Assembly: GCA_038237165.1 (NCBI GenBank)
Contig: JBBRYZ010000002.1
Coordinates: 9,395-73,394 of the forward strand
Reading direction: 5' to 3'
Source of the DNA: Bacteroidales bacterium
Lineage (GTDB): Bacteria > Bacteroidota > Bacteroidia > Bacteroidales > UBA4417
DNA: 64,000 bases
Shown: positions 2,238 through 63,176 of the stretch, piece by piece
Numbering within the stretch: position 1 is the stretch's first letter
Layout: each line of letters starts with the position of its first letter
Program-made: the position numbers and the translations under genes
The notes under the pieces: generated by a model
Told to the model about the DNA's origin: nothing
The model's database searches: none
What the model saw: the letters and a program-made list of their open reading frames with translations, nothing else

Positions 2238-2254
2238 AGAGTGAAAAACGAACA
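2220..2254. repeat. heptamer array (GTGAAAA), 5 units
   Basis: gtgaaaa gtgaaaa gtgaaga gtgaaaa acgaaca. It contains the EamA stop codon. Confidence 0.9.
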
Positions 2255-3992: not shown

Positions 3993-4013
3993 TTATAATT
4001 TCAGCTTTAATTG

Positions 4014-4156
4014 GAGTTTCAGGTTTACAGAGTTACAGAGTTACACCGTTTCAGAGTTACAGAGTTACAAGGTTACAAGGTTACAGTCCAATTCCGAAAT
4101 CCAAAATCTACAATCCTGCATCCCTAATCCCTAATCCCCAACGCCTAAACCCTCCC
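4014..4156. repeat. octamer lattice (GAGTTACA changing to AATCCCTA), about 18 units
   Basis: 8-nt phase holds from 4014 to 4156, with one 7-nt unit. The lattice covers nearly the whole mtaB-lgt spacer. Confidence 0.9.
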
Positions 4157-4161
4157 TTTAA

Positions 4162-13490: not shown

Positions 13491-13532
13491 GAAGACGGAA
13501 GACGGAAGACAGAAGACGGAAAACGGAAGCGA
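13491..13532. repeat. heptamer array (GAAGACG family, 6 units)
   Basis: gaagacg gaagacg gaagaca gaagacg gaaaacg gaagcga. Confidence 0.9.
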
Positions 13533-13716
13533 ATTCACTTTCATTACCTCTTTCATTTATAAATCCTTAGTTACATTTCTTTAAATGAACTGTTTGGATA
13601 ACTAATTGTAAACTAGTGAATTTAAGCTGTTTCGAAACTATAAATAGAAATTTAGATTTGAGACTTAAGATTTGGGGCTTGGGGCTTGGAATTTGCAACT
13701 TTAAATTTAGAAAAGA

Positions 13717-13790
13717 CCCCTCTGTCCTTCGGACATCTCCCCGTTGGGGAGAACCCTCCGAGCAAAGCTTCGTAGTAACTTTAGTTTTGG
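13717..13790. repeat. double-hairpin dispersed repeat, copy 1
   Basis: CCCCTCTGTCCTTCGGACATCTCCCCGTTGGGGAGAACCC plus a similar tail of about 35 bp. The motifs GTCC-TTCG-GGAC and CTCCCC-GTT-GGGGAG each form a hairpin. Confidence 0.85.
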
Positions 13791-13847: not shown

Positions 13848-13920
13848 CCCTCTGTCCTTCGGACATCTCCCCGTTGGGGGGAACCCACCGAACAAATTCT
13901 GATAGTAATTTGAATTTAGG
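13848..13920. repeat. double-hairpin dispersed repeat, copy 2
   Basis: Same core, 131 bp downstream of copy 1, in the same orientation. Confidence 0.85.
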
Positions 13921-18186: not shown

Positions 18187-18241
18187 ATGAGGGGTTAGGT
18201 TTTAGCGGTTAAGTGATTAGGGATGCTGGATTGTGGATTTC

Positions 18242-18381
18242 GAAGTCGGAAGACAGAAGTCGGAAGACAGAAGTCGGATTTGGGACGTCAGATTGAGGAA
18301 TGCAGATTGAAATTCTGAAACATGAAACTCTTCAAACATTTCAAGCTCTTCAAACATTTCAAACTCTTCAAACCTTTCAAA
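18242..18381. repeat. heptamer lattice (GAAGTCG/GAAGACA) passing into a 9-mer array (CTCTTCAAA/CATTTCAAA)
   Basis: 7-nt phase holds from 18242 to 18325. Six 9-mers run from 18328 to 18381. The array lies between convergent genes and reaches the stop of the 18377 gene. Confidence 0.9.
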
Positions 18382-24446: not shown

Positions 24447-24605
24447 CTGTTTTGATCAGGAAAAATAATGTTTATATTTCGATTTTCTTCTATGCTTATT
24501 CAAGGGTTAACCTCTCCTTTCCGCATTCAATTAATTAGTGCTTTACAATAAGGTTTATGTATTTTTTAGTAAAATACCTCAAGTTGAATTTAAAATACCG
24601 AATAC

Positions 24606-24739
24606 TGAACAATGCGAATCAGGTGTTTCAATTGCAACTTATTAGTTATCTGGTGATCTCTTTCAAAGTTTAAAACCTTGAAAGTGTTTAACGCCCAAAT
24701 AGACAAAACATGAATTCAACCCTTGATTCGCATGAACAA
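24606..24739. mobile_element. MITE-like 134-bp element, copy 1
   Basis: Imperfect terminal inverted repeats of about 25 bp (TGAACAATGCGAATCAGGTGTTTCAATT / AATTCAACCCTTGATTCGCATGAACAA). The whole length aligns with 31953-32086. Confidence 0.55.
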
Positions 24740-24917
24740 GGAATTATGAACCCGATAGCTATCGGGTTCGAAGTAATGAAGCTATAGAATTAGCTCTATT
24801 ACCCTCATTGTTATTTATTCAATTCCAATCTCCTTGTTTTTACTTCAATATTCGATATTCCTTGTTCATTATTCGATATTACAATCTTTATTGGTTCTGG
24901 CTTAACCAGGTTAGGAT

Positions 24918-26274: not shown

Positions 26275-27552
26275 TTACTTTTCAAAAACCCTATATCCCC
26301 AGGCCTCAAGTGAAAAACAAGGCGTATCACATATAATTACAGGCATTTCAGTAATTACATCTTTATAACTGCCCTGGTAGCCCTGGCCGGTAAGACTAAA
26401 ATCTACCCTTTCTGCACTCAGATTTAAAACAACCATAATTTTATCAAGCCCGCTTTCGCGTTTAAAACAAAGGATTTTATCGTCACGATCGGTTGTAAGC
26501 AATTGAAAATCACCTTTTGACTGCAAACTCCACATCGCCAGGTTTCTCATACGCAGATATGCAAGTTTAGTGTAAAGTTCAGCAACCTTATCAGATTTCC
26601 AGTCAATGCAGTCTTTATCAAAAAAACTGAGCCTTCGGTTGTTTCCGGCTTCCATACCGGAATACAGCATTGGCATACCCGGAAGCGTAAATATAACCAC
26701 GGCAAGGGCTTCAAGAGCCGGTCCCAGCCGTTCTATTTCTGATCCGTTCCACGAATTCTCATCGTGGTTGCTGATAAACATGAGGTTGTCAGCACCTTCC
26801 GGGAAATCAGTAATCTCCGAAGGAATCCGCCAGCGGATCTCATCAGCTGAATATTTTCCATGTGCCATATCGTTCCATACATGCATCAGGTTCCAGTTGT
26901 ACAACACATCAAAAGCTTCTGCAACCAGCTCACGCTCTTCAGCCTCGGCAAGCATAAAAACAGGTTTCACCTCATCAAGAGCAACCCTTGCCTCGTTCCA
27001 GAAACTTGTTGGTACAAGATGAGCCATATCGCAACGGAATCCGTCAATATCGGCAGTTGTGAGCCAGAATTTCATGGACGAGATCATCTCCGAACGCAGG
27101 TCAGGGTTTGTGTAATCAAGCCCGATCACATCCTCCCAATCGGGGAATGGCGGATGAACCATGCCTATATCATTCCGGCGGTAAAATGTCGGGAATTCAT
27201 CCACCCAGTGATGGTCCCATGCGGTGTGATTGGCAACCCAGTCGAGAATAACATACATCCCCATTGCATGAATTTCATCCACAATTTCGATGAATTCGGA
27301 CATTGTGCCATAGGACTCATCCAGTTTACAATAATCCCGGATAGAATAATAGCTTCCGAGTGTACCTTTCCTGTTAAGGATTCCGATGGGCTGCAATGGC
27401 ATAAACCAAAGTATTCCGGCGCCAAGTTCCTTTAACCGCGGCAAATGCTGCCTGAACTCTTTAATTGTGCCTCCCGGCGTATATTGCCTGAGATTAACTT
27501 CGTATACTACCTGGTTGCGCGCCCATTCGGGGAATTTATATTTTTGACTCAC
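26275..27552 (-). CDS. alpha-amylase-family glycoside hydrolase (GH13)
   Basis: 425 aa. GH13 regions DWVANH, GFRCDMAHLV, MLAEAE and FISNHDE. Confidence 0.85.
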   Translation of the reverse strand: MSQKYKFPEWARNQVVYEVNLRQYTPGGTIKEFRQHLPRLKELGAGILWFMPLQPIGILNRKGTLGSYYSIRDYCKLDESYGTMSEFIEIVDEIHAMGMYVILDWVANHTAWDHHWVDEFPTFYRRNDIGMVHPPFPDWEDVIGLDYTNPDLRSEMISSMKFWLTTADIDGFRCDMAHLVPTSFWNEARVALDEVKPVFMLAEAEERELVAEAFDVLYNWNLMHVWNDMAHGKYSADEIRWRIPSEITDFPEGADNLMFISNHDENSWNGSEIERLGPALEALAVVIFTLPGMPMLYSGMEAGNNRRLSFFDKDCIDWKSDKVAELYTKLAYLRMRNLAMWSLQSKGDFQLLTTDRDDKILCFKRESGLDKIMVVLNLSAERVDFSLTGQGYQGSYKDVITEMPVIICDTPCFSLEAWGYRVFEK

Positions 27553-27562
27553 TTGTTTTCGG

Positions 27563-27625
27563 GGGTTAGGGATGGGGTTTAGGGTTTAGGGTTTGGCACT
27601 TGGTGCTTGGCACTTAGTGCTTTAC
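27563..27625. repeat. heptamer array (GTTTAGG changing to GCTTGGC), 9 units
   Basis: gggttag ggatggg gtttagg gtttagg gtttggc acttggt gcttggc acttagt gctttac. The array starts 11 nt upstream of the amylase ATG. Confidence 0.9.
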
Positions 27626-31286: not shown

Positions 31287-31913
31287 ATGAAAAAAGCAAT
31301 ACTGTTCCTTATCCTGATTATACCGGTTGTACTTTCAGCGCAATCATGGAAATCGAATCCCATCGCCATAAGCGTGTTCAACAATGCCACTATGTTGCCA
31401 CCGGCCTCTCTTACTGCGACATTTAACCAGCCCTTGCATCCTGGGTTAACCGCATCCTACGAATTCGGCTGGAAGGAAACGACAAACCACAAATGGTTTC
31501 AGAATGCCGGCATCAGCTATATGTACCACCAGTTTGTGTACCAGGCCATACTGCTTAATTCGCAGGCCGGATATCGTTGGAAACTAAGCAGGTTTTCAAT
31601 CGAAGGATACTTGCAGGCCGGATATATGCACGCTTTTCTGCTTACAGATCGGGCAGTATTGCAGTCGGATGGAACTTATAAAGCAAAAAAAGGTTTTGGG
31701 AAACCACAGTTTATTGCAGGTGCCGGTGCCGGATTAGGTTATAACTTTGGAAACGAATCAACGCTGCGGCGAATCTTTATCAATTATGACATCCGCCTTC
31801 AGATGCCTTTTGTAAAGAGTTATGTAACACTATTGCCAAATGGCGCCTTGTCCGTAGGAATGCAGTTTACGCTTAGCCGTGTGGCGGATAAGGGAGATTG
31901 CAGTCCGTATTAA
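31287..31913 (+). CDS. hypothetical secreted / outer-membrane beta-barrel-like protein
   Basis: Signal peptide MKKAILFLILIIPVVLSAQ and an aromatic-rich alternating pattern. No family was recognised. Confidence 0.4.
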   Translation: MKKAILFLILIIPVVLSAQSWKSNPIAISVFNNATMLPPASLTATFNQPLHPGLTASYEFGWKETTNHKWFQNAGISYMYHQFVYQAILLNSQAGYRWKLSRFSIEGYLQAGYMHAFLLTDRAVLQSDGTYKAKKGFGKPQFIAGAGAGLGYNFGNESTLRRIFINYDIRLQMPFVKSYVTLLPNGALSVGMQFTLSRVADKGDCSPY

Positions 31914-31962
31914 AAAGTGAAGAGTGAAAAGTGAAAAACGTAAAACGAAAAGTGAATAATAC
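31914..31962. repeat. heptamer array (AAAGTGA family), 7 units
   Basis: The array begins at the nucleotide immediately after the TAA stop at 31911-31913. Confidence 0.9.
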
Positions 31963-32086
31963 CAATCAAGGGTTGAATTTGTAACTTATTAATTGCCAGG
32001 CGAACTTTTCAAGAGTTTAAAACTCCGGAAAAGTTTAACGCCTAAATAGACGAATCATTAATTCAACACTCGATTCGCATGAATAA
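31953..32086. mobile_element. MITE-like 134-bp element, copy 2
   Basis: Aligns with 24606-24739 at roughly 75-80 percent identity by eye. It is flanked on both sides by GTGAA-type heptamers. Confidence 0.55.
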
Positions 32087-32111
32087 TGAATAACGAAAAG
32101 TGAATCACAAA
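32077..32111. repeat. heptamer array (TAATGAA/AAGTGAA), 5 units
   Basis: gcatgaa taatgaa taacgaa aagtgaa tcacaaa. Confidence 0.8.
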
Positions 32112-37426: not shown

Positions 37427-37557
37427 ACAAGCATCCCTTTTCAAACCCATAACTACAGCTTTTCAAAAACATAAGCATCGCTTTCTAAAAATATAAGCAC
37501 AGTTTTTAAAAATATAAGCACAGTTTTATAAACCTGTAAGCATCGCTTATAAAAAAG
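37427..37557. repeat. six tandem units of about 22 bp (ATAAGCAyCGCTTTyTAAAAAt-like)
   Basis: Units start near 37427, 37449, 37471, 37493, 37514 and 37537, in the divergent spacer between the FISUMP and DHOD-like genes. Confidence 0.8.
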
Positions 37558-38945: not shown

Positions 38946-38982
38946 TAAAAAAAACCTGCTCTAAAGGCAGGTCTTTTTTTTT
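38946..38982. terminator. bidirectional rho-independent terminator
   Basis: A8-ACCTGC(7 nt)GCAGGT-C-T9, between the convergent DHOD-like gene and the last hdr/flx gene. Confidence 0.75.
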
Positions 38983-39820
38983 AATATTCGTCAGGTAACT
39001 CCTTTAGTTGTGTGCGGGTAAAAACGGGTCCGTCCTTGCAGACAAAAACTTTTCCTACATTGCAACGGCCACATTTGCCAAGGCCGCATTTCATACGGTT
39101 TTCAAGAGTGGTATAAACCTGGTCATCCGTAAAGCCATATTTTTCGAGTACAGGGAATGTAAATTTGATCATGACCGGAGGACCGCAAACAATGGCGATT
39201 GTGTTTTCACCTACCGGTTTCATCCGGTCGAGAATGGTTGGCACAAATCCGATCTCACCTTTCCAGTCGGGGGTTTCGCCGCCCGGGTCAACGGTTGTAA
39301 CCAGATTCACATCAGGGCGGGCTTTCCATTCGTCGAGTTCGTTTTTATAAACTAAATCGTTAACGGATTTGGCACCATAAAGTATCGAAATATCTTTAAA
39401 GTTTTCTCTTTGATCCAGACACGACCAGATGACGCTGCGCATGGGAGGCAATGCAATTCCGCCTGCAATAAAGAGAAGATTTTTACCTTTCCATTCATCG
39501 ATGGGGAAAATATTTCCGTAAGGTCCGCGGAAGCCAATGGTGTCGCCTTCGTTAAGACTGGCCAGTTCCGAAGTTACCCTTCCGGCTTCACGGAAAGTAC
39601 ATTCGATATATCCATTCCGGGTATGTGGCGAAGCAACGCAAAAGGTAACTTCTCCTTCGCCGAAAACGGAATACTCGCCGAATTGCCCGGTATGGAAAGA
39701 GAAATTATTTCCTTCCTCTTCGTTGGTAAATTTCAACCGGAATGTTTTGACCATGGGTGCCTCCTCAGTGATTTTCTCAATCTCCATCAGGTAAGGCTGG
39801 TAAATATTCTGTTGCTCCAT
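38981..39820 (-). CDS. flxA: FAD/NAD(P)-binding 2Fe-2S oxidoreductase subunit (FlxA / AsrB / HydG-like)
   Basis: 279 aa with a ferredoxin-reductase-type fold and C-terminal CGLGKCGRCNVG cluster motif. It is the last gene of the hdr/flx cluster. Confidence 0.7.
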   Translation of the reverse strand: MEQQNIYQPYLMEIEKITEEAPMVKTFRLKFTNEEEGNNFSFHTGQFGEYSVFGEGEVTFCVASPHTRNGYIECTFREAGRVTSELASLNEGDTIGFRGPYGNIFPIDEWKGKNLLFIAGGIALPPMRSVIWSCLDQRENFKDISILYGAKSVNDLVYKNELDEWKARPDVNLVTTVDPGGETPDWKGEIGFVPTILDRMKPVGENTIAIVCGPPVMIKFTFPVLEKYGFTDDQVYTTLENRMKCGLGKCGRCNVGKVFVCKDGPVFTRTQLKELPDEY

Positions 39821-39850
39821 GTTGTGTGTATGCGGGGTTATTTATATTAG

Positions 39851-39960
39851 TATTTAGTACTTGGTGCCTGGTACTTGGTGTCTGGTGCCTGGTGTCTTGT
39901 GCTTGGTGCTTGGTGCTTGGTACTATTCACTATTCACTATGCACTATGCGCTATGCGCTA
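39851..39960. repeat. 16-unit phase-locked heptamer array inside the hdr/flx operon
   Basis: tatttag tacttgg tgcctgg tacttgg tgtctgg tgcctgg tgtcttg tgcttgg x3 tactatt cactatt cactatg x2 cgctatg cgcta. The last unit contains the flxB-like stop codon. Confidence 0.95.
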
Positions 39961-40995
39961 CGCACTTAAAATTACCTGACTACCTATTTCACTCAAATGC
40001 TCCTTAATATTCATATCCACCGGGCAGGCTCTTGAACATCGTCCGCAGCCTTCGCAACCTACAACATGAAGTTGTTCTGGCATGTAAGCAAACTTATGCA
40101 TGATGCGTTGGCGCCAGCGTTGGCTTTGAACTTCCCTTGGATTGTGACCGGAGGTATGTAACGTGAACAGCGAAAATCCACATGAATCCCAAAGACGGAG
40201 ACGTACTCCTTTTTTGGTGTTCTGCTCATCCTGAAAATCGAAACAGGCACAGGTAGGGCAAACAAAAGCACATGCCCCGCAACCAATGCATCGGAGAGAT
40301 TGCTCAAGCCATAAAGCTGCATTATTAAAGGAAGCGGTTGTATTTTTAACTACCGAATTCACATCAAATACAACTTTTACATCGGCAAGAAATTTACTCT
40401 TATCAATGTCGCTTTTTGCATCGGTGAGAAGATCTGTGAAAACAGTTGCCAGCTTAATGCCTTTTTCGGTAAGGATTTCAACAAGAATTTCATCTTTGCT
40501 GATTCCTGTAAACTGAAGGTCGCTGCCCGCCGTATTGCCCGGTCCGCCGCCCACTGAAGTGCAGAAACAATATTCATCAGCCGTAGGGCAGGAAAAAGAA
40601 ATAATAGTGGTCTTCTCCTTTTTCTTCAAATATAGTTCATCCTTGGGAGTATCACCAAAAATGGCATCAAGCGATTTAAAACCGGAAGCGTCACAGGGTC
40701 TTACTCCGAAAAGAATCGTTTCCTTACAAGTTTCCGGATCAACAGGTGTTTGTTTTACATCTGATTTGCCGAAGGTAAAATCAAGCACTTTTTCCACTTT
40801 AGGAAAAGCTGCTTTCTTAGCCGACTGCGTTGACAATAATGCATCAAGTGCAACATCTTCGAGCGATTCAACCAATTCTATCTCCACGACCTTATCTTTG
40901 CGGACAGGCGCCAGCACAGGATACCCCTGCGAGCGAAACCTTTCAATAAGTTTTGGCAGATCGGTGTATTTCAGTATTTTAAGTTCTTTCTCCAT
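39958..40995 (-). CDS. flxB: 4Fe-4S dicluster protein (FlxB / AsrA / HydB-like)
   Basis: 345 aa. CIGCGACAFVCPTC and CEGCGRCSRACP ferredoxin motifs. Confidence 0.65.
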   Translation of the reverse strand: MEKELKILKYTDLPKLIERFRSQGYPVLAPVRKDKVVEIELVESLEDVALDALLSTQSAKKAAFPKVEKVLDFTFGKSDVKQTPVDPETCKETILFGVRPCDASGFKSLDAIFGDTPKDELYLKKKEKTTIISFSCPTADEYCFCTSVGGGPGNTAGSDLQFTGISKDEILVEILTEKGIKLATVFTDLLTDAKSDIDKSKFLADVKVVFDVNSVVKNTTASFNNAALWLEQSLRCIGCGACAFVCPTCACFDFQDEQNTKKGVRLRLWDSCGFSLFTLHTSGHNPREVQSQRWRQRIMHKFAYMPEQLHVVGCEGCGRCSRACPVDMNIKEHLSEIGSQVILSA

Positions 40996-40998
40996 GGG

Positions 40999-41802
40999 TC
41001 AGATAATGAAATTTTCCTTGTCATCGGGTTTATAAGTTGACAGGGCATAGACGGCATCGGCTTTCATTCCTGCGGTAGCGCCAAAAGTTTCCTGAATGGG
41101 CTGAATCAACTGATAGGTAAGCAGGTTAAGCGGAATATCCATTGGGCAGGCATTGGCACATTCGCCGCAGTTTACACAACGTCCGGCCAGATGCATGGCG
41201 CGCATCAGGTGGTAATCGAGGTTACCGAGTTCGTGGCTGGCAACAGGAATCCACTGCGGCTGATTTACATCCGTAGTACAGCGGTGGCAATAGCACATCG
41301 GGCAGGCAGCACGGCAGGCGTAACACTTAATGCATTTTTCAAATTCCTTGTTCCAAAAAGCCCAACGCTCCTTGACACTCATTGCCTCAAGCAGGGTAAT
41401 CATTTCCTGTTCTTCCGATTTTATTCCAACATCGGTAGTTTCAAGATAGGCTTCGATGGAATGAAAATCAGTGAATTCAGTAAATGAATTATCTGCATTT
41501 GGAAACAAAGCTAAAACCTCTCCATCCTTAATCTGGAATTCAGATGCAAGCTGCATCATACTCCTCAAAGCAGATACATTGGTCAGAATACCAAGTTTAC
41601 CAAGCTTTTTTACTTCATGTTTTAGAAGATAACCAGCCAGATTTTGAGTGCAAGATGCGTCGAAGATCAGTTTACCGGCCTGTTCGGCTGTCCTTATAAA
41701 CGTAGTCCTGATGCGGTCAGCGGAGCCTTTTTCGTAACCGATAAATACATCTATCGTTTTATCGCTTAGTAGCTGCGTTACTTTTTTAATAAGTTCACTC
41801 AT
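40999..41802 (-). CDS. flxC: 4Fe-4S dicluster protein (FlxC-like)
   Basis: CIKCYACRAACPMC and CVNCGECANACP motifs. Start MSELIKK at 41802 gives an ATGAGTGA overlap with the mvhD stop. Confidence 0.6.
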   Translation of the reverse strand: MSELIKKVTQLLSDKTIDVFIGYEKGSADRIRTTFIRTAEQAGKLIFDASCTQNLAGYLLKHEVKKLGKLGILTNVSALRSMMQLASEFQIKDGEVLALFPNADNSFTEFTDFHSIEAYLETTDVGIKSEEQEMITLLEAMSVKERWAFWNKEFEKCIKCYACRAACPMCYCHRCTTDVNQPQWIPVASHELGNLDYHLMRAMHLAGRCVNCGECANACPMDIPLNLLTYQLIQPIQETFGATAGMKADAVYALSTYKPDDKENFII

Positions 41803-42253
41803 GGGTTGCGCCCTCCTCGTTAAATAAAGTGGAAACGGCAATTTTCTTATAACTATCGTTCGGACCGAATTCCTTAATCTTTTTTACTGTGTTATTCACA
41901 ACATCGGCCCACTTGAAACCTTCGGCTGCAGATACCCAGCTGAATTGTATGCGATCGGTTTCTATCCCTGCAAAATTGAGCAGATTGCGGAAAACGATCC
42001 ACCTCCTGCGTGCATGAAAATTGCCGGTACTGTAATGGCAATCATTTGGGTGACACCCCGAAACTATAATTCCGTCGGCTCCGTTTTCAAATGCTTTCAT
42101 CAGTATCATAAAGTCGATACGGCCGGTACATGGGAAACGGATTATTTTCACGTTGGCCGAATACTTGATGCGGCTCGTACCCGTGAGGTCGGCACCGGCA
42201 TAGGTGCACCAGTTACATACAAATGCCACAATTTTTGGTTCAAATTCCTGCAT
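41795..42253 (-). CDS. mvhD: MvhD/FlpD-type hydrogenase iron-sulfur (delta) subunit (FlxD-like)
   Basis: 152 aa. IVAFVCNWCTYAGADLTG...RFPCTGR...SGCHPNDCHY is the signature of the MvhD family. Confidence 0.85.
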   Translation of the reverse strand: MQEFEPKIVAFVCNWCTYAGADLTGTSRIKYSANVKIIRFPCTGRIDFMILMKAFENGADGIIVSGCHPNDCHYSTGNFHARRRWIVFRNLLNFAGIETDRIQFSWVSAAEGFKWADVVNNTVKKIKEFGPNDSYKKIAVSTLFNEEGATHE

Positions 42254-42265
42254 TCTATTCTGCTA

Positions 42266-44266
42266 TTAATCGTTTAATAAAGCCATTACTTCTGTGTAAA
42301 CCTGCTGGTTCGAGTATCCATGTATGTCGATTGCCTTGGTACGGCATAGTGCGACGCATGTTCCGCAGCCCTGGCAAAGTCCTTCGTTCACCCTGGCCAG
42401 AGTTTTGATTACTTCACCGTTTCTGTTTTTGATTTCTTCGCGCTCGATGGCCTGATATGGGCAGACACTCTGGCAAAGGAAACAGCCAACACATTGCGAA
42501 TATACGGGCGGAGCCTGGCGGTTTACCACAGCTACCAGCGGATCGCGGGTTAACAAATCATTGCTGAAAAGAGCAGCAACTTTTACGGCAGCGCCTGACG
42601 CGGCAGCCACCGATTCTGGAATATCTTTCGGAGCCTGACAGGCGCCCGCAAGGAAAATACCGGCAGTATTGGTTTCGACGGGTTTCAGTTTGGGATGTGC
42701 TTCGGCAAAGAATTTATACGAGTCGTACGAAACGTGAACAGTCTGAGCCAGTTCTTCGGCTCCTTTATTTGCTACCCCGGCAGTCGCCAGAACAACCATA
42801 TCGGCTTCAATTTCAATCGGAATACCACCCATCAGCGTATCAGCGCCTTTTACGATCAGTTTGCCATTTTTTTCGTAGATGGTCGAAACACGGCCACGCA
42901 CATAATGTGTTCCGTCCTCAACAATGGTGCGGCGCACAAATTCCTCGTACATCTTCCCTCCTGCCCTGATGTCCATATAAAAAACATAGGGAGTGCCATC
43001 ATGAACCTTGTGTTTGTAAAGCATAGCATGCTTGGCGGTGTACATGCAGCAGATTTTTGAGCAATATTCAATTCCCTTGGCGGGATCGCGTGAACCGGCA
43101 CAGGCAACGAAAACAATCTTTTTAGGAATCTGTCCGTCCGACGGCCTGCGGATTTCACCCTGAGTCGGACCTGATGCAGATGCAAGGCGTTCGAACTGAA
43201 GACCGTCGATTACATCTTTGTATTTCCCATAACCATATTCGGGGAAATAGTCAGGTTTGAGAACATCAAAACCGGTGGCAAGCACAATTGCGCCGACAGC
43301 TACCTGAACAATTTCATCTTCCTGATCGAAACGAATGGCTTTTGTCGGGCAAACGATTTCGCAAACCTTACATTTGCCTTTAATATAATAGGTGCAATTT
43401 TCTCTATCGATAACCGGTTTGTTTGGAACAGCCTGCGGAAAAGGTACATAAATAGCAGGACGGAAACCTAAGCCGCGTTCAAATTCATTGGGAATTTTCT
43501 TTTGAGGACATTTGGTTGTACAAAGTCCACAGCCCGTACAATCGTGCTCGTCAATGCTTTTTGATTTCTTGCGGATTATTACTGTGAAGTTGCCGATGAA
43601 CCCATCCACACTTTCCACTTCGGAATAAGTATGAAGTGTAATATTGGGATGCTGGGCAATTTCAACCATCCTCGGTGTGAGAATACACTGTGAGCAGTCA
43701 AGCGTTGGAAAAGTTTCGGACAACTGCGACATATGACCACCAATGGAAGGTTGTTTTTCGACCATGATCACTTTGTGTCCGCAATTGGCAATATCCAGAG
43801 CAGCCTGTATGCCGGCAATTCCACCACCAATCACTAAGGCGGTTTTTGTTACCGGAACTTTGATAGAGTTTAGCGCTTTATTTTTCTTGACTTTCTCAAC
43901 CATTACCCTTACCAGAGCCTCAGCTTTTTCAGTGGTAAGATCATCTTTGGGATGAACCCATGAGCAATGCTCGCGGATATTCGACATCTCGCAAAGGAAA
44001 GGATTCAAACCCGCTTCGGCGCAGGCTTTACGGAAAGTCGGCTCATGCATACGAGGCGAACACGCAGCTACCACAACACCATCCAGTTTATGCTCCTTGA
44101 TTGCATCTTTCAGCATTGTCTGACCGGGGTCGGAACACATATATTTATAATCGGTGGCAAATTCAACACCTTTGAGTTCACCAGTGATTTTGGCAACTTT
44201 TTCGCAATTTACCGTGGCTGAAATATTTTCACCACAGTGACAAACAAAAACTCCTATCCGCGACAT
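42266..44266 (-). CDS. hdrA: heterodisulfide reductase subunit A-like flavoprotein
   Basis: 666 aa. FAD motif VIGGGIAGIQAA, several CxxCxxCxxxCP clusters, HdrA-typical length. Confidence 0.9.
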   Translation of the reverse strand: MSRIGVFVCHCGENISATVNCEKVAKITGELKGVEFATDYKYMCSDPGQTMLKDAIKEHKLDGVVVAACSPRMHEPTFRKACAEAGLNPFLCEMSNIREHCSWVHPKDDLTTEKAEALVRVMVEKVKKNKALNSIKVPVTKTALVIGGGIAGIQAALDIANCGHKVIMVEKQPSIGGHMSQLSETFPTLDCSQCILTPRMVEIAQHPNITLHTYSEVESVDGFIGNFTVIIRKKSKSIDEHDCTGCGLCTTKCPQKKIPNEFERGLGFRPAIYVPFPQAVPNKPVIDRENCTYYIKGKCKVCEIVCPTKAIRFDQEDEIVQVAVGAIVLATGFDVLKPDYFPEYGYGKYKDVIDGLQFERLASASGPTQGEIRRPSDGQIPKKIVFVACAGSRDPAKGIEYCSKICCMYTAKHAMLYKHKVHDGTPYVFYMDIRAGGKMYEEFVRRTIVEDGTHYVRGRVSTIYEKNGKLIVKGADTLMGGIPIEIEADMVVLATAGVANKGAEELAQTVHVSYDSYKFFAEAHPKLKPVETNTAGIFLAGACQAPKDIPESVAAASGAAVKVAALFSNDLLTRDPLVAVVNRQAPPVYSQCVGCFLCQSVCPYQAIEREEIKNRNGEVIKTLARVNEGLCQGCGTCVALCRTKAIDIHGYSNQQVYTEVMALLND

Positions 44267-44268
44267 GT

Positions 44269-45186
44269 TTAAGCCTCCGTTTTTTGAGTGGTTACTACTT
44301 TCCTGGCAACTTCTGCAACCGGAATTTCCTTTATGGGACGATCCGGCAGATTTACTTCTGTCATATGCCTGTTAATTCCAAGTGATTTAGCATCAAGCCC
44401 GACGGCAAGTCCCAATACCTGTGAAATATACAAAACCGGAATATCAATTTTCTCGCTGAGGAATTTATTGATTTCCGGGCGACGCATATCCAGGTTCGAA
44501 TGACACATAGGGCAAGCCACCACTACTACTTCGGCTTCCCGGTCGTTTGCATCTTTCATTATATTTCCTGACAAACGGGCAACAGTATCGGTACGTGAAA
44601 CCGACATTCCGGCTCCGCAGCATTCCGTTTTAAAAGCCCAGTCAATCGCATTTCCACCGGCTTTCCTCACTAGTACATCCATGCTTTGCGGATCTTCAAC
44701 CCTATCGAATTTAAGGATGGAATGCGGACGAACCAGAAGGCAACCGTAATAACAAGCTGTTTTGTAATCAAAAGGCTTTACCACTTTTTCTTCCAGCCTG
44801 TCAGTTATATATTTGTCGATAAACTGAATAATATTAAGGATATGTGTGGTTCCCTCATATTTCATATCGATAATTGAAGCGACTTTTGAAGATAAAGAAG
44901 GATCTTCTTCAAGTTCATGCTTAACTAGCGAAAGCCGGTTGTAACAGGCAGCACAAGGAACAACGATATCCGTGATGCCTTCCCTTTCGGCCAAAGCCAT
45001 AATCCGGGCCGGCAAGCTGAGCGACAATTCCTTGTTAAGGTTATGAGCCGCAGTGGCTCCGCAGCAGTTCCAGTCAGGAATTTCGACAAGCTCTATATCA
45101 AATACTTTTGCCAGGGCTGTAACCGATTCCTGGTATTCCTGAGCGCCACCTTTCATGGAGCAACCCGGATAAAATCCTACTTTCAT
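44269..45186 (-). CDS. hdrB: heterodisulfide reductase subunit B-like (two CCG domains)
   Basis: 305 aa. Two CCG motifs (WNCCGA, TECCGAG) plus PCAACY and CPMCH. Confidence 0.9.
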   Translation of the reverse strand: MKVGFYPGCSMKGGAQEYQESVTALAKVFDIELVEIPDWNCCGATAAHNLNKELSLSLPARIMALAEREGITDIVVPCAACYNRLSLVKHELEEDPSLSSKVASIIDMKYEGTTHILNIIQFIDKYITDRLEEKVVKPFDYKTACYYGCLLVRPHSILKFDRVEDPQSMDVLVRKAGGNAIDWAFKTECCGAGMSVSRTDTVARLSGNIMKDANDREAEVVVVACPMCHSNLDMRRPEINKFLSEKIDIPVLYISQVLGLAVGLDAKSLGINRHMTEVNLPDRPIKEIPVAEVARKVVTTQKTEA

Positions 45187-45764
45187 TGTTTACCCTCCTC
45201 TTTCTTAATCTGAACTTTATTAAAAATAGCAGCTACCTTTTTCCTTCCCTTTATAATTTCGGGAATGGGATTCAGCTTTCCCTTGAAAAACATTTTGGGG
45301 GCAATAGCTACATCCTGCATCATGGCTCCTGTTCGCATTTTATAATCAACGATCAGTCCCATTTCATAAAGTCTGCCCGTATAATTGATCGAATCGAGAA
45401 ATGATTTATGAAATGATATTATCTTTTTGGCCAGTGGATTTGTCTTTTTGGCTTTCACCGATTTCTGCCTCAGGTTATCCATGATGGTGGGAATATCAAT
45501 TTCCATCGGGCAACGGGTAAGACACATCTCACAACTCACACATAGCCATATGGACATGGATTTCAATAGCTTTTCATAATGAACAGGTTCGTCAGTCTGT
45601 AGCATCCGCATCACAAGGCTGGGCGGATAATCCATTTCGGTTGCTACCGGACAGCCAGCCGAACATTTGCCGCACTGGTAACATTTATTAATGATCACGC
45701 CGGTTTCCATCTGCATTTCGCCGCTGAGGGATAAAGGGTGACTTATTTCGAGTGAAGCGGACAT
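45183..45764 (-). CDS. hdrC: heterodisulfide reductase subunit C-like
   Basis: 193 aa. CYQCGKCSAGCP and CVSCEMCLTRCP motifs. A 4-nt ATGA overlap with hdrB. Confidence 0.85.
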   Translation of the reverse strand: MSASLEISHPLSLSGEMQMETGVIINKCYQCGKCSAGCPVATEMDYPPSLVMRMLQTDEPVHYEKLLKSMSIWLCVSCEMCLTRCPMEIDIPTIMDNLRQKSVKAKKTNPLAKKIISFHKSFLDSINYTGRLYEMGLIVDYKMRTGAMMQDVAIAPKMFFKGKLNPIPEIIKGRKKVAAIFNKVQIKKEEGKQ

Positions 45765-46336
45765 AAAACTAGATTTCGCTTAGGTTAAACATATTTTCCA
45801 GAATACTTTTTCTTTAATAATAGCATTTATCTCACATCAATCATGATAGTTACGATCATAAATCAGCCAGCCCATTCGAGCCGGAAATCAAAATCGGAAA
45901 GTTACCTGAAGAAAGAAAAGATGATGACACTGTTGTTCAGAATTAAGATTCTTCTGTTATTCAATTCACAGGCAAAATTAATATATTGAACAAACCAAAT
46001 ATGATTTTTTGCAATTTATAATGCTTTTAAATAGAGCACTTTCATGGGTTCCGAAGGTATCTCCATTCAACATATCGCCTGCTTTTATATCCAAAGCAGA
46101 AAAATGCCAATCAGGGGTTATGTCTTTTTTATATTTCAACAAAGCCCTGAAATGGCTATTTCTTTCCAACTTTTGATTCAAATGGAAAAGTATTTTTCAT
46201 AAAACCAGAAATCCAATGTTAACAAAAAAAAATGCATTCCGACATTTTTAATCCTCTGAATATTTACTCAAGCAACAAATTCAATCGAAAGATAAACTCC
46301 GTAAAGTTATTATTGTATAAAGTGCGGGTAGTTTAT

Positions 46337-49522: not shown

Positions 49523-49694
49523 GCAGTTAATGGTTAATGGAAAATGGAAAATGGTTAACATTAATTTATTCAGGAATTCAAAAAACATTTAACATTAAAC
49601 ACAAAACATTTAACACTTAACAGCACTCCATGCACTAAGCACCACACACCACTCAAAGCACTTTTACCTCTAATTTTAAAACTCAATCAACCCC
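49523..49694. repeat. heptamer lattice filling the whole spacer from stop to start (about 24 units)
   Basis: gcagtta atggtta atggaaa atggaaa atggtta ... then 11 consecutive units beginning with C (caaaaaa catttaa cattaaa cacaaaa catttaa cacttaa cagcact ccatgca ctaagca ccacaca ccactca). Confidence 0.9.
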
Positions 49695-52270: not shown

Positions 52271-53341
52271 ATGTTAGATAAGCTTGCAGCCATAAACGAA
52301 CGTTACCTTACTATTGCTACTCAAATCAATGATCCTGACGTAATGCAGGATATGAAAGCATATATAAAACTCAGCAAAGACTATAAAGAACTTCAGCCTA
52401 TTATCGAAGGTTATAAGAAATATAAAGTGATTGTGGAAGGCATCGAAGCCTGCCATTCCATACTTGATGAAGAAAAGGACGAGGAAATGCGTTCCTTTGC
52501 CAGAGAGGAAATGGAGTCGCTTACCGACCAGCGCGACAAACTGGAAGAAGAAATCCGCCTTATGCTCATTCCTTCCGATCCGCAGGATGTAAAAAATGCT
52601 GTGGTCGAAATCAGGGCAGGCTCAGGTGGAGACGAAGCCAGTATTTTTGCAGGCGACCTTTACCGTATGTACATACGCTATTGCGAACGTAAAAACTGGA
52701 AGATAGAGCCTGTTAGTATGACCGAAGGCACTATGGGCGGTTTTAAGGAAGTTATTTTCGAAGTAAAAGGCGACGGAGTTTATGGTTTATTGAAATATGA
52801 ATCGGGAGTGCATCGCGTACAGCGTGTTCCCGACACCGAAACTCAGGGCCGGATTCATACTTCGGCAGCATCTGTTGCGGTTTTGCCCGAAGCTGATGAA
52901 TTTGAAGTAGACTTGAAACCCAGCGATATCCGTAAAGACACGTATTGTTCATCCGGTCCCGGTGGACAAAGTGTAAATACAACTTACTCAGCAGTGCGCC
53001 TTACCCATGCTCCTACCGGAATCGTGGTTGCCATTCAGGATGAAAAATCGCAGATGAAGAATTTCGAAAAAGCCATGACGATTTTACGGGCACGAATTTT
53101 CGAACGGGAATACCAGAAATATCTGGATGAGATTTCGAAAAAACGTAAAACCATGGTTTCCTCCGGCGACCGGTCTGCAAAAATCCGCACCTATAATTAC
53201 CCGCAAAGCCGCGTTACTGATCATCGCATCAATTATACCATGTATAATCTACCAGTCTTTCTGGATGGTGAAATACAGGATTTTATTGATAATCTGCAAC
53301 TGGCTGAAAATGCGGAAAGACTGAAAGAAGCGACGGAATAA
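52271..53341 (+). CDS. prfA: peptide chain release factor 1
   Basis: GGQ motif (SGPGGQSVN) and an RF1-type RVQRVPDTETQGR region. Start MLDKLAAINERY. Confidence 0.9.
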   Translation: MLDKLAAINERYLTIATQINDPDVMQDMKAYIKLSKDYKELQPIIEGYKKYKVIVEGIEACHSILDEEKDEEMRSFAREEMESLTDQRDKLEEEIRLMLIPSDPQDVKNAVVEIRAGSGGDEASIFAGDLYRMYIRYCERKNWKIEPVSMTEGTMGGFKEVIFEVKGDGVYGLLKYESGVHRVQRVPDTETQGRIHTSAASVAVLPEADEFEVDLKPSDIRKDTYCSSGPGGQSVNTTYSAVRLTHAPTGIVVAIQDEKSQMKNFEKAMTILRARIFEREYQKYLDEISKKRKTMVSSGDRSAKIRTYNYPQSRVTDHRINYTMYNLPVFLDGEIQDFIDNLQLAENAERLKEATE

Positions 53342-53588
53342 ATTCGGATTTGTCCACAAATGTTCACAAATAAAACACAAATAGGCACAAATAATTCTTG
53401 CTTATTATTTATCAATTATTCTTCAGGCTGGTCAGAATTTTATTGATAATCTGCAACTGGCTGAAAATGCGGAAAGACTGAAAGAAGCGACGGAATAAAT
53501 TCGGATTTGTCCACAAATGTTCACAAATAAAACACAAATAGGCACAAATAATTCTTGCTTATTATTCATCAATTATTCTTCAGGCTGG
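53276..53588. repeat. tandem duplication, 2 x 157 bp, covering the last 66 nt of prfA (stop codon included) plus 91 nt downstream
   Basis: 53276-53432 and 53433-53588 are collinear with 2 mismatches (53279 vs 53436, and tatttatc vs tattcatc). Confidence 0.95.
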
Positions 53589-53660
53589 AAAGAATTGGCA
53601 CAATAATTTTGTGTTAATTTGTGAAACATTTGAGTTATTTGTGGAAGATACATTTCCACG

Positions 53661-53690
53661 CTATGCACCAAGCACCTAGCACCAAATCCT
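53661..53690. repeat. heptamer array (CCAAGCA family) abutting the pyrF ATG
   Basis: ctatgca ccaagca cctagca ccaaatc. The unit is the reverse complement of the TGCTTGG family at 27598 and 39900. Confidence 0.75.
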
Positions 53691-56970: not shown

Positions 56971-57137
56971 ATACTCTGATTTATATGTTAATGACCTGTT
57001 TCCCAAATTAATAAACAGTACGACCTGATCAAATTTCAGTGATATTCTTAACGAGACAAAGGTAGAAAATATAACTGTAGTTATTATAAGTTCGAAGAAT
57101 ATTCTTTCGGGAATTTTTTAAGGTTTCAGGGGTCTAA

Positions 57138-57270
57138 TGGTCATACGATAGTCATACGATAGCCATTCATTGGTCATACGATAGTCTTACAATGGTCAGT
57201 CGATAGTTATGCGATGGTCATTCAATCTCTTCAAACTCTTCAAAACCTTCAAAACCTACAAAACCATAAA
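57138..57270. repeat. 11-mer array (TGGTCATACGA/TAGTCATACGA, 8 units) followed by a 9-mer array (ACTCTTCAA, 5 units)
   Basis: 11-nt phase from 57138 to 57225, with a 22-bp super-period. 9-nt phase from 57226 to 57270. Confidence 0.9.
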
Positions 57271-57300
57271 ACTGTCACACTGAGCGTAGTCGAAGTGCCA

Positions 57301-57399
57301 AAATCTGTAAACATTTCAAACCCTTCTAACTCCTCAAACCCTTCAATCTCTTCAAACATTTCAAACTCGTCAAACATTTCAGACTCATCAAACCATTAT
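57301..57399. repeat. 9-mer array (AACATTTCA/AACCCTTCA), 11 units
   Basis: It is separated from the preceding 9-mer array by a 30-bp insert, ACTGTCACACTGAGCGTAGTCGAAGTGCC, which breaks the phase. Confidence 0.9.
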
Positions 57400-57468
57400 T
57401 AAACCTACACCCACCTTTCCCGCAAGGTGCCAAATTGACAGTCCCTACCCCATGGCACATGCTTTGAT

Positions 57469-57476
57469 TAACTTTG
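57469..57476 (+). promoter_or_regulatory. -7 box (TAACTTTG) for htpG
   Basis: TAnnTTTG 28 nt upstream of ATG 57504. Confidence 0.5.
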
Positions 57477-57503
57477 GAAAAGAAAATATAAAATAGATAA
57501 ACT

Positions 57504-59414: not shown

Positions 59415-59575
59415 AAAGACGGAAGTCCGAAGACGGAAGTTCGAAGACGAAAGGTAGTAGTAGAACATAGAATTCGGAAGACAGAAGCAGGTAGTCGAAG
59501 TTATGAATATGTAATTAGCACTTCCGACTCCGGTCTTCGGACTTCCTACCTTTTCACACCAATTACAATTTAAAA
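59415..59575. repeat. heptamer lattice (GAAGACG/GAAGTCC family) with an internal inverted segment
   Basis: 7-nt phase begins at the nucleotide after the htpG stop. The 14-bp perfect inverted repeat 59421-59434 / 59533-59546 can form a long hairpin. Confidence 0.9.
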
Positions 59576-59587
59576 AAGAAAAAGAAT

Positions 59588-59595
59588 TACCTTTG
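59588..59595 (+). promoter_or_regulatory. -7 box (TACCTTTG) for lemA
   Basis: TAnnTTTG 41 nt upstream of ATG 59636. Confidence 0.5.
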
Positions 59596-59635
59596 AATCA
59601 ATCAAAAACAAAACCATAACCAATAAAACAGGACA

Positions 59636-61003: not shown

Positions 61004-61804
61004 ATGAAATCCGGAAATTCGTTTAAAACCTTACTCCTTTTTGCCATTCTACTGCTGCAATCCGGATTAATTTTTGCCCAGGGCATTCCAGCCAGGCCAG
61101 ATCCTCCGCGCCTGGTTAACGATTTTGCAAATATTCTGAGCCCGGATCAGTTGCAAAGCCTTGAATCAAAGTTGGTGGCATTTAATGATTCCACTTCTGT
61201 TCAGATAGCAATTGTTATTGTACCCACACTCGACGGTTACGAAAAGGCTGACTACGCCCAGCAACTCGGGCAAAAATGGGGTGTTGGCGGAAGTAAATTC
61301 AATAATGGTTTCGTAGTACTAATCAAACCTAAAAGCGGATCCGAAAATGGTGAAGCTTTTATTGCAACCGGCTATGGGGTTGAGCAATTTGTTCCTGATG
61401 CTACCTCATATGATATTGTTAACAACGAAATGATCCCCCGTTTCAAACAGAATGATTATTACGGAGGTATTGATGCTGCTACGAATGTTATTATGTCGCT
61501 GGTAAAAGGCGAGTTTAAGGCCGAAGCTTACTCAAAAAAGAAGAAAGGTTCACCGGTAGGCATAATCGTTATTATCATTATTGTTATAATTTTTCTCATT
61601 TCAAGAAACAATAAAAACGGTGGTCGTACCATCAACCATTCAGGTTCTGCGGGTATGTTGTTGTTCCCATGGTTGATGGGTGGCGGCGGAGGTGGAGGTT
61701 TTGGCGGAGGTGGCGGCGGCGGTTTTGGCGGCGGCGGAGGCGGCGGTTTCGGTGGCTTCGGAGGCGGTGGCTTTGGAGGCGGAGGCGCAGGCGGAAGCTG
61801 GTAG
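61004..61804 (+). CDS. TPM-domain protein, YgcG-like, with a TM helix and Gly/Phe-rich tail
   Basis: Signal peptide, TPM domain (VNDFANILS...IAIVIVPTL), a TM helix and a C-terminal GGGGGGFGGGGGGGFGG... tail. Confidence 0.8.
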   Translation: MKSGNSFKTLLLFAILLLQSGLIFAQGIPARPDPPRLVNDFANILSPDQLQSLESKLVAFNDSTSVQIAIVIVPTLDGYEKADYAQQLGQKWGVGGSKFNNGFVVLIKPKSGSENGEAFIATGYGVEQFVPDATSYDIVNNEMIPRFKQNDYYGGIDAATNVIMSLVKGEFKAEAYSKKKKGSPVGIIVIIIIVIIFLISRNNKNGGRTINHSGSAGMLLFPWLMGGGGGGGFGGGGGGGFGGGGGGGFGGFGGGGFGGGGAGGSW

Positions 61805-61807
61805 GAT

Positions 61808-61995
61808 GAGAAATAGTTAATGGAAAATAGTTGACAGAAAATAGTCATACAATGGTCATGCGATAGTCATACGATTGTCGAAAGATGGTCATAGATTGTC
61901 ATGCGATGGTTAAATAATAGTCATTCGATGGTCGTAAAGTGGTTTCATCTAACTTTTCAAAATCATGAGACTCTTCAAACATTTCAAACTCTAAG
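61808..61995. repeat. 14/11-mer array (AAAATAGTTAATGG, then TGGTCATGCGA/TAGTCATACGA) followed by 9-mers
   Basis: About 10 units in approximately 11-nt phase (one 10-nt unit) from 61842 to 61950. GACTCTTCA AACATTTCA from 61969. The unit families are the same as at 57138-57399 and (in reverse complement) 5379-5433. Confidence 0.9.
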
Positions 61996-62117
61996 CTAAA
62001 GGGAAAATACTGAAGAGAATCTTACTTAGTGCTTTCTCCCCTATTCATGCTGAGAGGAGTCGTAGCATCAGGACGAGTCCGAGACCAGGCCACAGCCTTC
62101 AAAATAAATAAAAACCG

Positions 62118-63084: not shown

Positions 63085-63176
63085 AGGGTTTGAAGAGTTT
63101 CAGGGTTTCAGAGTTTCAGTTGCTAATTTTAAGTAAAACTTTTCAAACCTTCGGACGTGGATTGTTCAAACCCTTC
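63083..63176. repeat. inverted 8/9-mer arrays (GGGTTTGAA... / ...TTCAAACCC)
   Basis: The 12-bp perfect inverted repeat 63083-63094 / 63165-63176. The left arm includes the TGA stop of the Gfo gene. Confidence 0.8.

Follow-up and report, generated by a model that had tools for sequence, protein, structure and literature searches.

Tandem heptamers of the short tandemly repeated repetitive (STRR) kind, reportedly described by Mazel et al. in 1990, are said to be intergenic in cyanobacteria, to lie inside operons as well and to be present in many copies per genome; to our knowledge, no function has been established for them. In enterobacteria, repetitive extragenic palindromic sequences and bacterial interspersed mosaic elements (REP/BIME) form intercistronic stem-loops, with malE-malF as the paradigm of unequal expression of neighbouring cistrons, and Rho utilization (rut) sites are stretches of approximately 70-80 nt of C-rich, G-poor, unstructured RNA. 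In the survey of Mrazek et al. 2007, as it is quoted in PMC4679880, heptanucleotides are the commonest class of prokaryotic long simple sequence repeats (LSSR) with units of 5-11 nt, and polymerase slippage is blamed for them. TAACTGA heptamer arrays occur in Beggiatoaceae, Cyanobacteria and five Bacteroidetes, where they are intergenic, orientation-biased and located upstream of Shine-Dalgarno-less starts of housekeeping genes; their spacers also hold other heptamer repeats, close relatives lack them, and binding by S1, Csp or CsrA has been suggested (MacGregor 2015, PMC4679880). The AGAT repeats of Moraxella uspA2 are a phase-variable promoter/5' untranslated region (UTR) tract, as cited in PMC4679880, and the heptanucleotide repeats of Haemophilus hmw are phase-variable as well (PMC8262952). 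Here, a heptamer array between the flxB-like and flxA-like genes of an hdrCBA-flxDCBA cluster is described, which lies in a 64,000-nt stretch (the window) of contig JBBRYZ010000002.1 from an uncultured anaerobic Bacteroidales bacterium.

The array is real, belongs to a class, varies in copy number and occupies a dispensable spacer, and known signals are absent from it. With moderate confidence, it is interpreted as a slippage-driven heptanucleotide LSSR that behaves as a variable-number tandem repeat (VNTR) in a derived, untranslated and co-transcribed spacer, with a mainly passive effect; it is probably not a dedicated switch for the hdr-flx operon.

Results

A heptamer array fills the flxB-flxA gap

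The gap at 39821-39957 (137 nt) is the sole large gap of the cluster. On the minus strand, 16 units (39849-39960) follow one another in a single unbroken phase from the flxB stop, in the order TAGCGCA x2, TAGTGCA, TAGTGAA x2 and TAGTACC, and then AAGCACC x2, AAGCACA, AGACACC, AGGCACC, AGACACC, AAGTACC, AGGCACC, AAGTACT and AAATACT. When a degenerate seventeenth unit (AATATAA) is included, 16-17 contiguous head-to-tail heptamers fill approximately 80% of the gap. The self-match at a lag of 7 nt is 0.76, compared with 0.29±0.045 (maximum 0.42) in 2000 dinucleotide shuffles, and Tandem Repeats Finder (TRF) scores the array at 55-82 with a period of 7/14. The 16-unit, phase-locked array reported in the initial annotation is thus borne out. 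It had also been stated that the stop codon is the first unit, and the TAG stop of flxB (39960-39958, minus strand) does form the first three bases of unit 1, but the periodicity begins approximately 6 nt earlier, within the last flxB codons (AAGTGCG; TRF start 39966), the last two of which (AGT GCG) are already unit-like. Because the periodicity begins before the stop codon, the 3' end of flxB may have been the seed of the array.

TRF reports the array as two sub-arrays of opposite GC skew, the second with a 14-nt higher-order period, which is the usual mark of multi-unit duplications. The components of the region are as follows.

39919-39960, minus strand: sub-array A, 42 nt, six heptamers, G at least equal to C (11 G, 7 C)
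39849-39918, minus strand: sub-array B, 70 nt, ten heptamers of the ARGCACC family (24 C, 11 G, 30 A, 5 T)
39821-39848, minus strand: degenerate unit AATATAA and 21-nt non-repeat leader ATAACCCCGCATACACACAAC, A-rich and G-poor, no Shine-Dalgarno sequence

In the stop-codon map, TAG recurs every 7 nt in sub-array A and therefore closes all three frames, and in the start-codon map sub-array B contains no ATG, GTG or TTG; the last 98 nt ahead of the flxA ATG are without any NTG codon. Coding potential was not found in the array, as the sense strand has stops in three frames and the list of open reading frames (ORFs) contains no antisense ORF of at least 50 aa across it. L081, a metagenome contig whose FlxA is 98% identical, has almost the same flxA leader, and across 14 relatives positions -30 to -1 contain 55% A and 8% G and lack a Shine-Dalgarno sequence. 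An A-rich leader without a Shine-Dalgarno sequence is the usual initiation context in Bacteroidota.

The spacer is derived and its array varies between relatives

The top genome matches of FlxA are uncultured freshwater Bacteroidales with 91-93% amino acid identity, one of which is labelled Lentimicrobiaceae. Relatives share the seven-gene order, and in most of approximately 150 relatives flxB and flxA overlap or are separated by at most 15 nt. Members of the closest group have gaps of 124-503 nt, filled with tandem arrays in every case, with array lengths of 124 to >340 nt across close relatives, unit periods of 7, 8 and approximately 11-16 nt, and units that vary by genome: GTTCAAR and TTGAACGCGAAGCAWT in L001, L005 and L150; TAATGTGA, ATTTGAGG and CTCATAA in L002-L004; and TAGTGCA/TAGTGAA followed by more than 30 GCACNNA units in L009. 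L081 has the 3' leader of the window, with AAGCCCC x4 and AAGCACC x4 upstream. The unit mix turns over between close relatives.

A neighbour-joining tree of FlxB+FlxA groups the array-bearing genomes in its crown and places L008 (2 nt), L084 (-1 nt) and L161 (1 nt) at the base; L006, which has a tight junction (1 nt), is nested within the crown. Basal relatives thus combine a tight flxB-flxA junction with an intact operon, which indicates that the spacer is derived and dispensable. Absence of the array from all relatives with no effect on operon structure had been named as an argument against a regulatory role; L006, L008, L084 and L161 do have an intact operon without an array, whereas other relatives carry one. 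The hdrA-flxD junction, which is 12 nt in the window, is also expanded to 121-629 nt in five relatives and holds arrays there with units AGAATRC, GGAGTAA, CTTCTGT and TTACGAW, so colonisation by arrays appears to be opportunistic and not flxA-specific. The expanded hdrA-flxD junctions are as follows.

L001: 5329-5523
L002: 4933-5561
L003: 2659-2793
L005: 2550-2670
L009: 3622-4213

Short-read contigs often end in arrays, as would be expected if the pattern were an artefact of assembly, and individual copy numbers may for this reason be mis-assembled. However, the periodicity lies far outside the shuffles, and homologous arrays are present at the flxB-flxA junction in more than 15 independent assemblies, complete chromosomes included (e.g., OY762227.1, which is L002), which leaves a chance pattern or an assembly artefact with next to negligible probability.

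Copy number changes by whole units

An exact-protein look-up returned no other record of the window's FlxA, and its own species is represented by L081 alone, a contig that ends in the array; copy number was compared in a sister lineage. P0132 and P0133 are FlxA proteins approximately 93% identical to that of the window, and each is found on approximately 20 contigs from different samples. On the P0132 contigs, which have identical FlxA and the same TAGTGAA and AAGCACC families as the window, the gap measures 186, 200 or 242 nt; these lengths differ by 14, 42 and 56 nt, all multiples of 7, the kind of length polymorphism that the initial annotation had proposed to look for in related genomes. 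Across these contigs, the count of TAGTGAA ranges from 3 to 6 and that of AAGCACC-type units from approximately 9 to >20. The P0133 gap lengths, 340 and 364 nt, are three GATTTGAG-type 8-mers apart, and half of the P0132/P0133 contigs break within the array. Since the gaps on contigs with identical FlxA differ by whole units, the junction is a VNTR.

Whole-unit variation within a species, and the breakage of many contigs in the array (consistent with population heterogeneity), would fit a phase-variable switch at the DNA level, in which copy number alters an internal promoter or a protein-binding site and turns flxA up or down in the manner of a contingency locus. Promoters of Haemophilus hmw and Vibrio ctxAB are reported to be controlled by heptanucleotide repeats, and phase-variable simple sequence repeats likewise form a tract between the transcription start and the coding start, with copy number that varies within a species. 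However, those tracts lie at surface contingency genes and have a demonstrated effect on expression, whereas flxA encodes a housekeeping redox subunit, and the flx array is one of dozens near housekeeping genes, with no detectable promoter: the coding strand of the gap lacks TAnnTTTG, a TTTG box and a sigma-70-like site. Arrays are also found in about a third of all spacers. A switch of this type is considered very improbable.

In L163 (approximately 1380-1500), which encodes identical FlxA (P0133), unrelated small ORFs take the place of flxB and the join lies in the distal array TTGAACGCGAAGCAATTGAAC, which reflects either rearrangement at the repeat or a chimeric assembly.

The array belongs to a window-wide class

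Under a strict filter (period of 5-12, 3.5 copies or more, TRF score of at least 40), 18 arrays are found in the window and none in 30 dinucleotide-shuffled windows; dozens of short-period arrays are reported by TRF overall. Array bases are 68% non-coding, compared with 20% expected, and all strong period-7 arrays are intergenic. Arrays occupy 14 of the 39 spacers of at least 60 nt, with co-directional, convergent and divergent spacers all included, and the adjacent genes are ordinary housekeeping genes (htpG, pyrF, purM-like). The idea of an RNA-binding protein gene beside the arrays was rejected: a Gly-rich repeat at 61682-61795 is part of a TPM-domain protein, and the neighbours are housekeeping genes. 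Arrays with the unit families of the flx junction are located as follows.

53663-53685, plus strand: AAGCACC-family array (ATGCACC AAGCACC TAGCACC AA), in sense orientation, ending 5 nt before the start at 53691 (pyrF-like)
49630-49650, plus strand: AAGCACC-type array
27595-27622, minus strand: AAGCACC-type array
13672-13689, minus strand: AAGCACC-type array
31913-31956, plus strand: RAGTGAA-family array (AAAGTGA/AGAGTGA), beginning at the stop codon of the upstream gene
2218-2247, plus strand: RAGTGAA-family array at a stop codon

The initial annotation had set the array apart from spacer filler, a distinction that these loci, the 14 array-bearing spacers and the hdrA-flxD junctions of relatives do not sustain.

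Comparison with described repeats

In common with LSSR and VNTR, the flx array is contiguous, exceeds chance, varies by whole units and has units that are not a multiple of 3 in non-coding DNA; like LSSR, it consists of head-to-tail 7-nt units, longer than chance, that are intergenic in particular lineages and variable in copy number. It differs in that its units change progressively, whereas those of LSSR are near-identical, in that two families of opposite GC skew abut inside an operon, and in its Bacteroidales host, which is outside the survey of Mrazek et al. 2007. Similarly to the TAACTGA arrays, the arrays described here are intergenic, show an orientation bias relative to the downstream start, lie upstream of housekeeping genes that lack Shine-Dalgarno sites, reuse units across loci and taxa, and have relatives with short repeat-free spacers. 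However, TAACTGA itself occurs in the window as 11 singletons with no tandem pair, which places the array outside that network; several unit families coexist here and arrays also abut stop codons, and the flx array lies 28 nt from the start and does not overlap the ribosome-binding region.

The flx array resembles the STRR in consisting of tandem heptamers that are intergenic and operon-internal, with many arrays per genome, but the STRR belong to another phylum, the Cyanobacteria, and no tandem pairs of the STRR1-3 units (CCCCAGT, TTGGTCA, CAACAGT) are present in the window, so the array is not a member. The likeness to REP/BIME is that of a dispersed repeat in an operon spacer whose sub-arrays form a stable hairpin in some relatives; the differences are that the flx array is made of tandem heptamers, has no fixed palindromic unit and shows no significant sense structure in the window. 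Judged by its sequence, the flx array is of the known intergenic heptamer-repeat kind, but not of the TAACTGA or STRR unit families, and its useful particulars are the operon-internal position, the two-family architecture and the whole-unit polymorphism.

Regulatory signals and RNA structure in the gap

Consensus scans of 39821-39957 found no intrinsic terminator (hairpin plus U tract) on either strand and no sigma-70-like promoter, and a scan limited to consensus matching found no Bacteroidetes -7 box (TAnnTTTG) and no TTTG box on the coding strand. An internal promoter, one of the roles that the initial annotation had proposed, and a terminator in the gap were accordingly rejected. The nearest -7-like match (40089-40096) is within flxB and lacks a -33 partner; elsewhere in the window, TAnnTTTG marks many gene starts, typically 20-50 nt upstream. 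A search of Rfam returned no family in the gap and only a tRNA elsewhere in the window.

The sense RNA is no more stably folded than shuffled sequences (-23.3 kcal/mol, z = -0.18; gap alone, z = -0.79). With z values of -0.2 to -0.8 in the window and no Rfam match, a structured cis-regulatory RNA was rejected, and the earlier proposal of expression control through RNA structure is not supported. The antisense fold is stronger (z = -2.6 to -3.0) because that strand can form G·U pairs; no sign of an antisense promoter is seen in this region, and the convergent gene upstream is equipped with a terminator-like site of its own at 38954-38972. Accessibility of the flxA start in silico shows no clear effect of deletion, shuffling or replacement of the array: the mean P(unpaired) over positions -20 to +12 is 0.326 in the native sequence, 0.282 with the array deleted, 0.330±0.027 with the array shuffled and 0.299±0.042 with random operon sequence. 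The idea that the array keeps the flxA start accessible was rejected because these values are similar with and without the array.

An imperfect hairpin of the REP/BIME type, in which AGUGC-type units pair with GCAC(U)-type units and either stabilise the upstream mRNA or create an RNase site, would yield unequal flxB and flxA expression. Conserved cores that are reverse complements, AGTGC downstream of the stop and GCACT/GCACC ahead of the start, are present in the window, L009, L003, L082 and L169, and 4 of 10 relatives have a significant sense fold: L005 (z = -2.4), L082 (-3.3), L083 (-3.0) and L150 (-4.8). Complementary array pairs also occur elsewhere in the window (GAAGACGGAAGTCCG and CGGACTTCC around 59416-59530; pairs at 63085 and 63150), and every array-bearing spacer reads G-rich and then C-rich, as a hairpin with its G arm first would. 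However, the sense fold is not significant in L001, L002, L003, L004 and L009, or in the window, where the hairpin between the sub-arrays was rejected on the z values above; the hairpin is thus not conserved. TAGTGAA, the most frequent 5' unit, can form only 3 bp with AAGCACC, and in L169, L170 and L172 the copy number of one arm does not follow that of the other. Little weight is consequently given to this explanation, which appears improbable.

The hdr-flx cluster

By the ORF list and Pfam domains, seven minus-strand ORFs that lie head to tail form the hdrCBA-flxDCBA cluster.

45183-45764, minus strand: hdrC-like, Pfam 4Fe-4S dicluster
44269-45186, minus strand: hdrB-like, Pfam CCG domains
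42266-44266, minus strand: hdrA-like, Pfam FAD and Fe-S
41795-42253, minus strand: flxD/mvhD-like, Pfam PF02662
40999-41841, minus strand: flxC-like, Pfam Fe-S
39958-40995, minus strand: flxB-like, 345 aa, Fer4_22 iron-sulfur subunit (Pfam PF17179, E = 7.6e-32)
38981-39820, minus strand: flxA-like, 279 aa, FAD/NAD(P)H-binding subunit with a 2Fe-2S domain (PF00175, PF10418, PF00970)

The Pfam domains of all seven ORFs and the gene order kept in relatives identify a FlxABCD-HdrABC gene cluster. The junctions are, in order, -4, +2, +12, -8 and +3 nt, followed by the 137 nt between flxB and flxA; the initial annotation correctly gave all the others as 12 nt or less, but counted six where seven genes leave five. 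As judged by tblastn from residue 1, flxA begins at this ATG (39820 in the window) in all relatives. A match to the Bacteroidetes -7 box, TAATTTTG at 45973-45980 (minus strand), lies approximately 210 nt upstream of hdrC and is a candidate operon promoter, which would imply a long 5' UTR.

Other repeats in the window

Telomere-like heptamers, (CCCTAAA)n/(TTTAGGG)n and CCCTAAT, are present at 27575-27594 and approximately 27540-27575 (minus strand CCAAACCCTAAACCCTAAACCCCATCCCTAACCCCC), and a telomere-like ATCCCTA x4.9 array is present at 4120-4153; the G-rich strand of such arrays could form G-quadruplexes and the C-rich strand i-motifs. A 93-nt tandem repeat at 2241-2624 (4.1 copies, 88% identity), each copy of which contains the internal palindrome CTTCTCCTTGAGGAGAAG, is flanked by AGTGAAA (2219-2247) and CGAAATC (2636-2672) arrays and overlaps a doubtful 113-aa ORF. 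Two unrelated spacers share a dispersed repeat of approximately 150 nt in the same orientation (31946-32097 and 24599-24750; 77% identity), and because inverted termini (CGAATCAAGGGTTGAATT ... AATTCAACACTCGATTCG) bound it, this repeat is MITE-like or inverton-like.

Additionally, a 73-nt element occurs twice in a divergent spacer (13690-13790 and 13848-13920; 84% identity) and contains the hairpin-forming CCCTCTGTCCTTCGGACATCTCCCCGTTGGGG. A 157-nt direct repeat at 53275-53596 (2.1 copies, 96% identity), which holds internal CACAAAT-type 10-11-mers, extends across the 3' end of a gene that terminates at 53341. An array with a period of 22 nt (AAGCATCGCTTTTAAAAAACAT, approximately 5.9 copies, 37429-37556) is located in a 661-nt divergent spacer beside a dihydroorotate-dehydrogenase-like gene. 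At both 57140-57273 and 61841-62000, an 11-mer array GTCATACGATA is followed by TTCAAAC-type 9-mers; these matching composites hint at multi-array blocks that are copied or convergent.

Discussion

Under the interpretation of a slippage-driven, mainly passive repeat, a seed in the 3'-end sequence of flxB, including its stop codon, would have grown by slipped-strand mispairing or unequal exchange, and seeding from this end would explain why the stop codon is unit 1. The array would be transcribed within the hdrCBA-flxDCBA mRNA. Co-transcription, which the initial annotation had considered very likely, is plausible from the absence of promoter and terminator motifs in the gap, the conserved gene order and the 1-2 nt junctions of some relatives. 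An ancestral, translationally coupled junction of 1-2 nt would have been replaced by approximately 140 nt of untranslated RNA that is stop-dense first and then G-poor, start-codon-free and weakly structured. FlxA synthesis, uncoupled by this stop-dense and start-free spacer, would then depend on independent, Shine-Dalgarno-less initiation at the conserved A-rich leader, and the array itself would act as neither promoter, terminator nor stable RNA structure.

Several observations weigh against an entirely passive repeat. Both unit families of the flx junction (RAGTGMA, AAGCACC) reappear at unlinked loci of the window, and GAAGACG arrays are found in distant Bacteroidales (L040-L042, approximately 2500-2800; L085, 361-402). 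The GAAGACG/GAAGTCG family is located at three unlinked window loci (13491-13529, 18242-18278 and 59416-59453) and in L002 (5472-5517) and L009 (4127-4158); its presence in genomes with FlxA just 72-78% identical suggests a unit vocabulary common to several genera. The spacer has been kept through most of the crown group. The arrays are also polarised: all seven window arrays within 30 nt of a stop have G>C on the sense strand of the gene, and all nine nearest a start have C>G (Mann-Whitney p = 0.004). The L169 lineage differs from the window at 57% of the four-fold degenerate flxA sites (Jukes-Cantor distance approximately 1) but has identical modal units (TAGTGAA/TAGTGCA, then AAGCACC), although under neutral drift about half the positions of the consensus should differ. 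The skew, the unit conservation and the recurring families together argue for selection or a sequence-specific process beyond passive filler. Finally, co-transcription and independent FlxA initiation are themselves what we infer from the sequence.

The flx array follows the skew rule, and over the window and relatives the skew falls from stop to start (Spearman -0.59, n = 39, with loci that are not independent). Every array-bearing spacer is G-rich and then C-rich in the 5'-to-3' direction (e.g., 3993-4161, 18187-18376, 49523-49694, 56971-57503, 59415-59635), an order that is independent of the orientation of the flanking genes and invariant under reverse complementation. Strand polarity as proof of a role at the RNA level was rejected, as the rule is the same as a strand-symmetric G-then-C order in all four spacer types; the two statements are mathematically identical, so the rule cannot separate a gene-linked cause from a DNA-symmetric, hairpin-like one. 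Nevertheless, the skew rule and the unit conservation leave room for an RNA-level role.

One such role would be that of a cis-acting RNA platform, in which (AAGCACC)n loads Rho in a rut-like manner, or a single-strand RNA-binding protein that reads heptamers, and thereby tunes the transcription or translation that reaches flxA, with copy number as a heritable knob. The 3' half of the array with the leader includes the strongest sense-strand C>G stretch of the 7-kb operon (78 nt at 39824-39901; 26 C, 9 G; approximately 3.5 sd above the mean), which is untranslated and poorly structured and has the composition, though only the composition, of a rut site (70-80 nt, C-rich, G-poor, unstructured, untranslated). 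Unit sequences are kept despite saturated synonymous divergence, AAGCACC arrays are sense-oriented upstream of starts at four other loci, and binding of S1, Csp or CsrA has been proposed for TAACTGA arrays upstream of starts (PMC4679880). However, similar C-rich arrays precede most genes and are found even upstream of predicted -7 boxes (e.g., 57221-57394 before TAACTTTG at 57469) and in convergent spacers, where such a role would not apply. The length of the array at the junction ranges from 0 to >340 nt among relatives, the C-rich half has just 7 YC dinucleotides in 70 nt, and any binding protein would be hypothetical. An RNA platform is therefore regarded as unlikely.

A broader possibility, judged quite unlikely, is that the arrays provide lineage-wide, orientation-specific punctuation of transcripts, with purine- and stop-rich arrays after stops and C-rich, G-poor arrays before starts that would be sites for RNA-binding proteins or Rho kept by selection; at the flx junction, they would set the FlxA level, and slippage would fine-tune it. 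If this were true, a small unit vocabulary (RAGTGAA, AAGCACC, GAAGACG and others) would have been selected across species with saturated synonymous sites.

The interpretation as a slippage-driven VNTR with a mainly passive effect carries a caution: a striking repeat in an operon is here one instance of a genome-wide intergenic heptamer class, and for this reason the array should not be taken for a regulator dedicated to Flx-Hdr stoichiometry. The G-then-C order and the conservation of units bear on the old question of the purpose of bacterial heptanucleotide repeats (STRR, LSSR, TAACTGA). Additionally, relatives provide a natural series at one junction, from tight coupling through a spacer to arrays of 124 to >340 nt, with whole-unit variation within a population, which may be used to gauge the effects of intercistronic spacer length and composition on expression in Shine-Dalgarno-less Bacteroidota.

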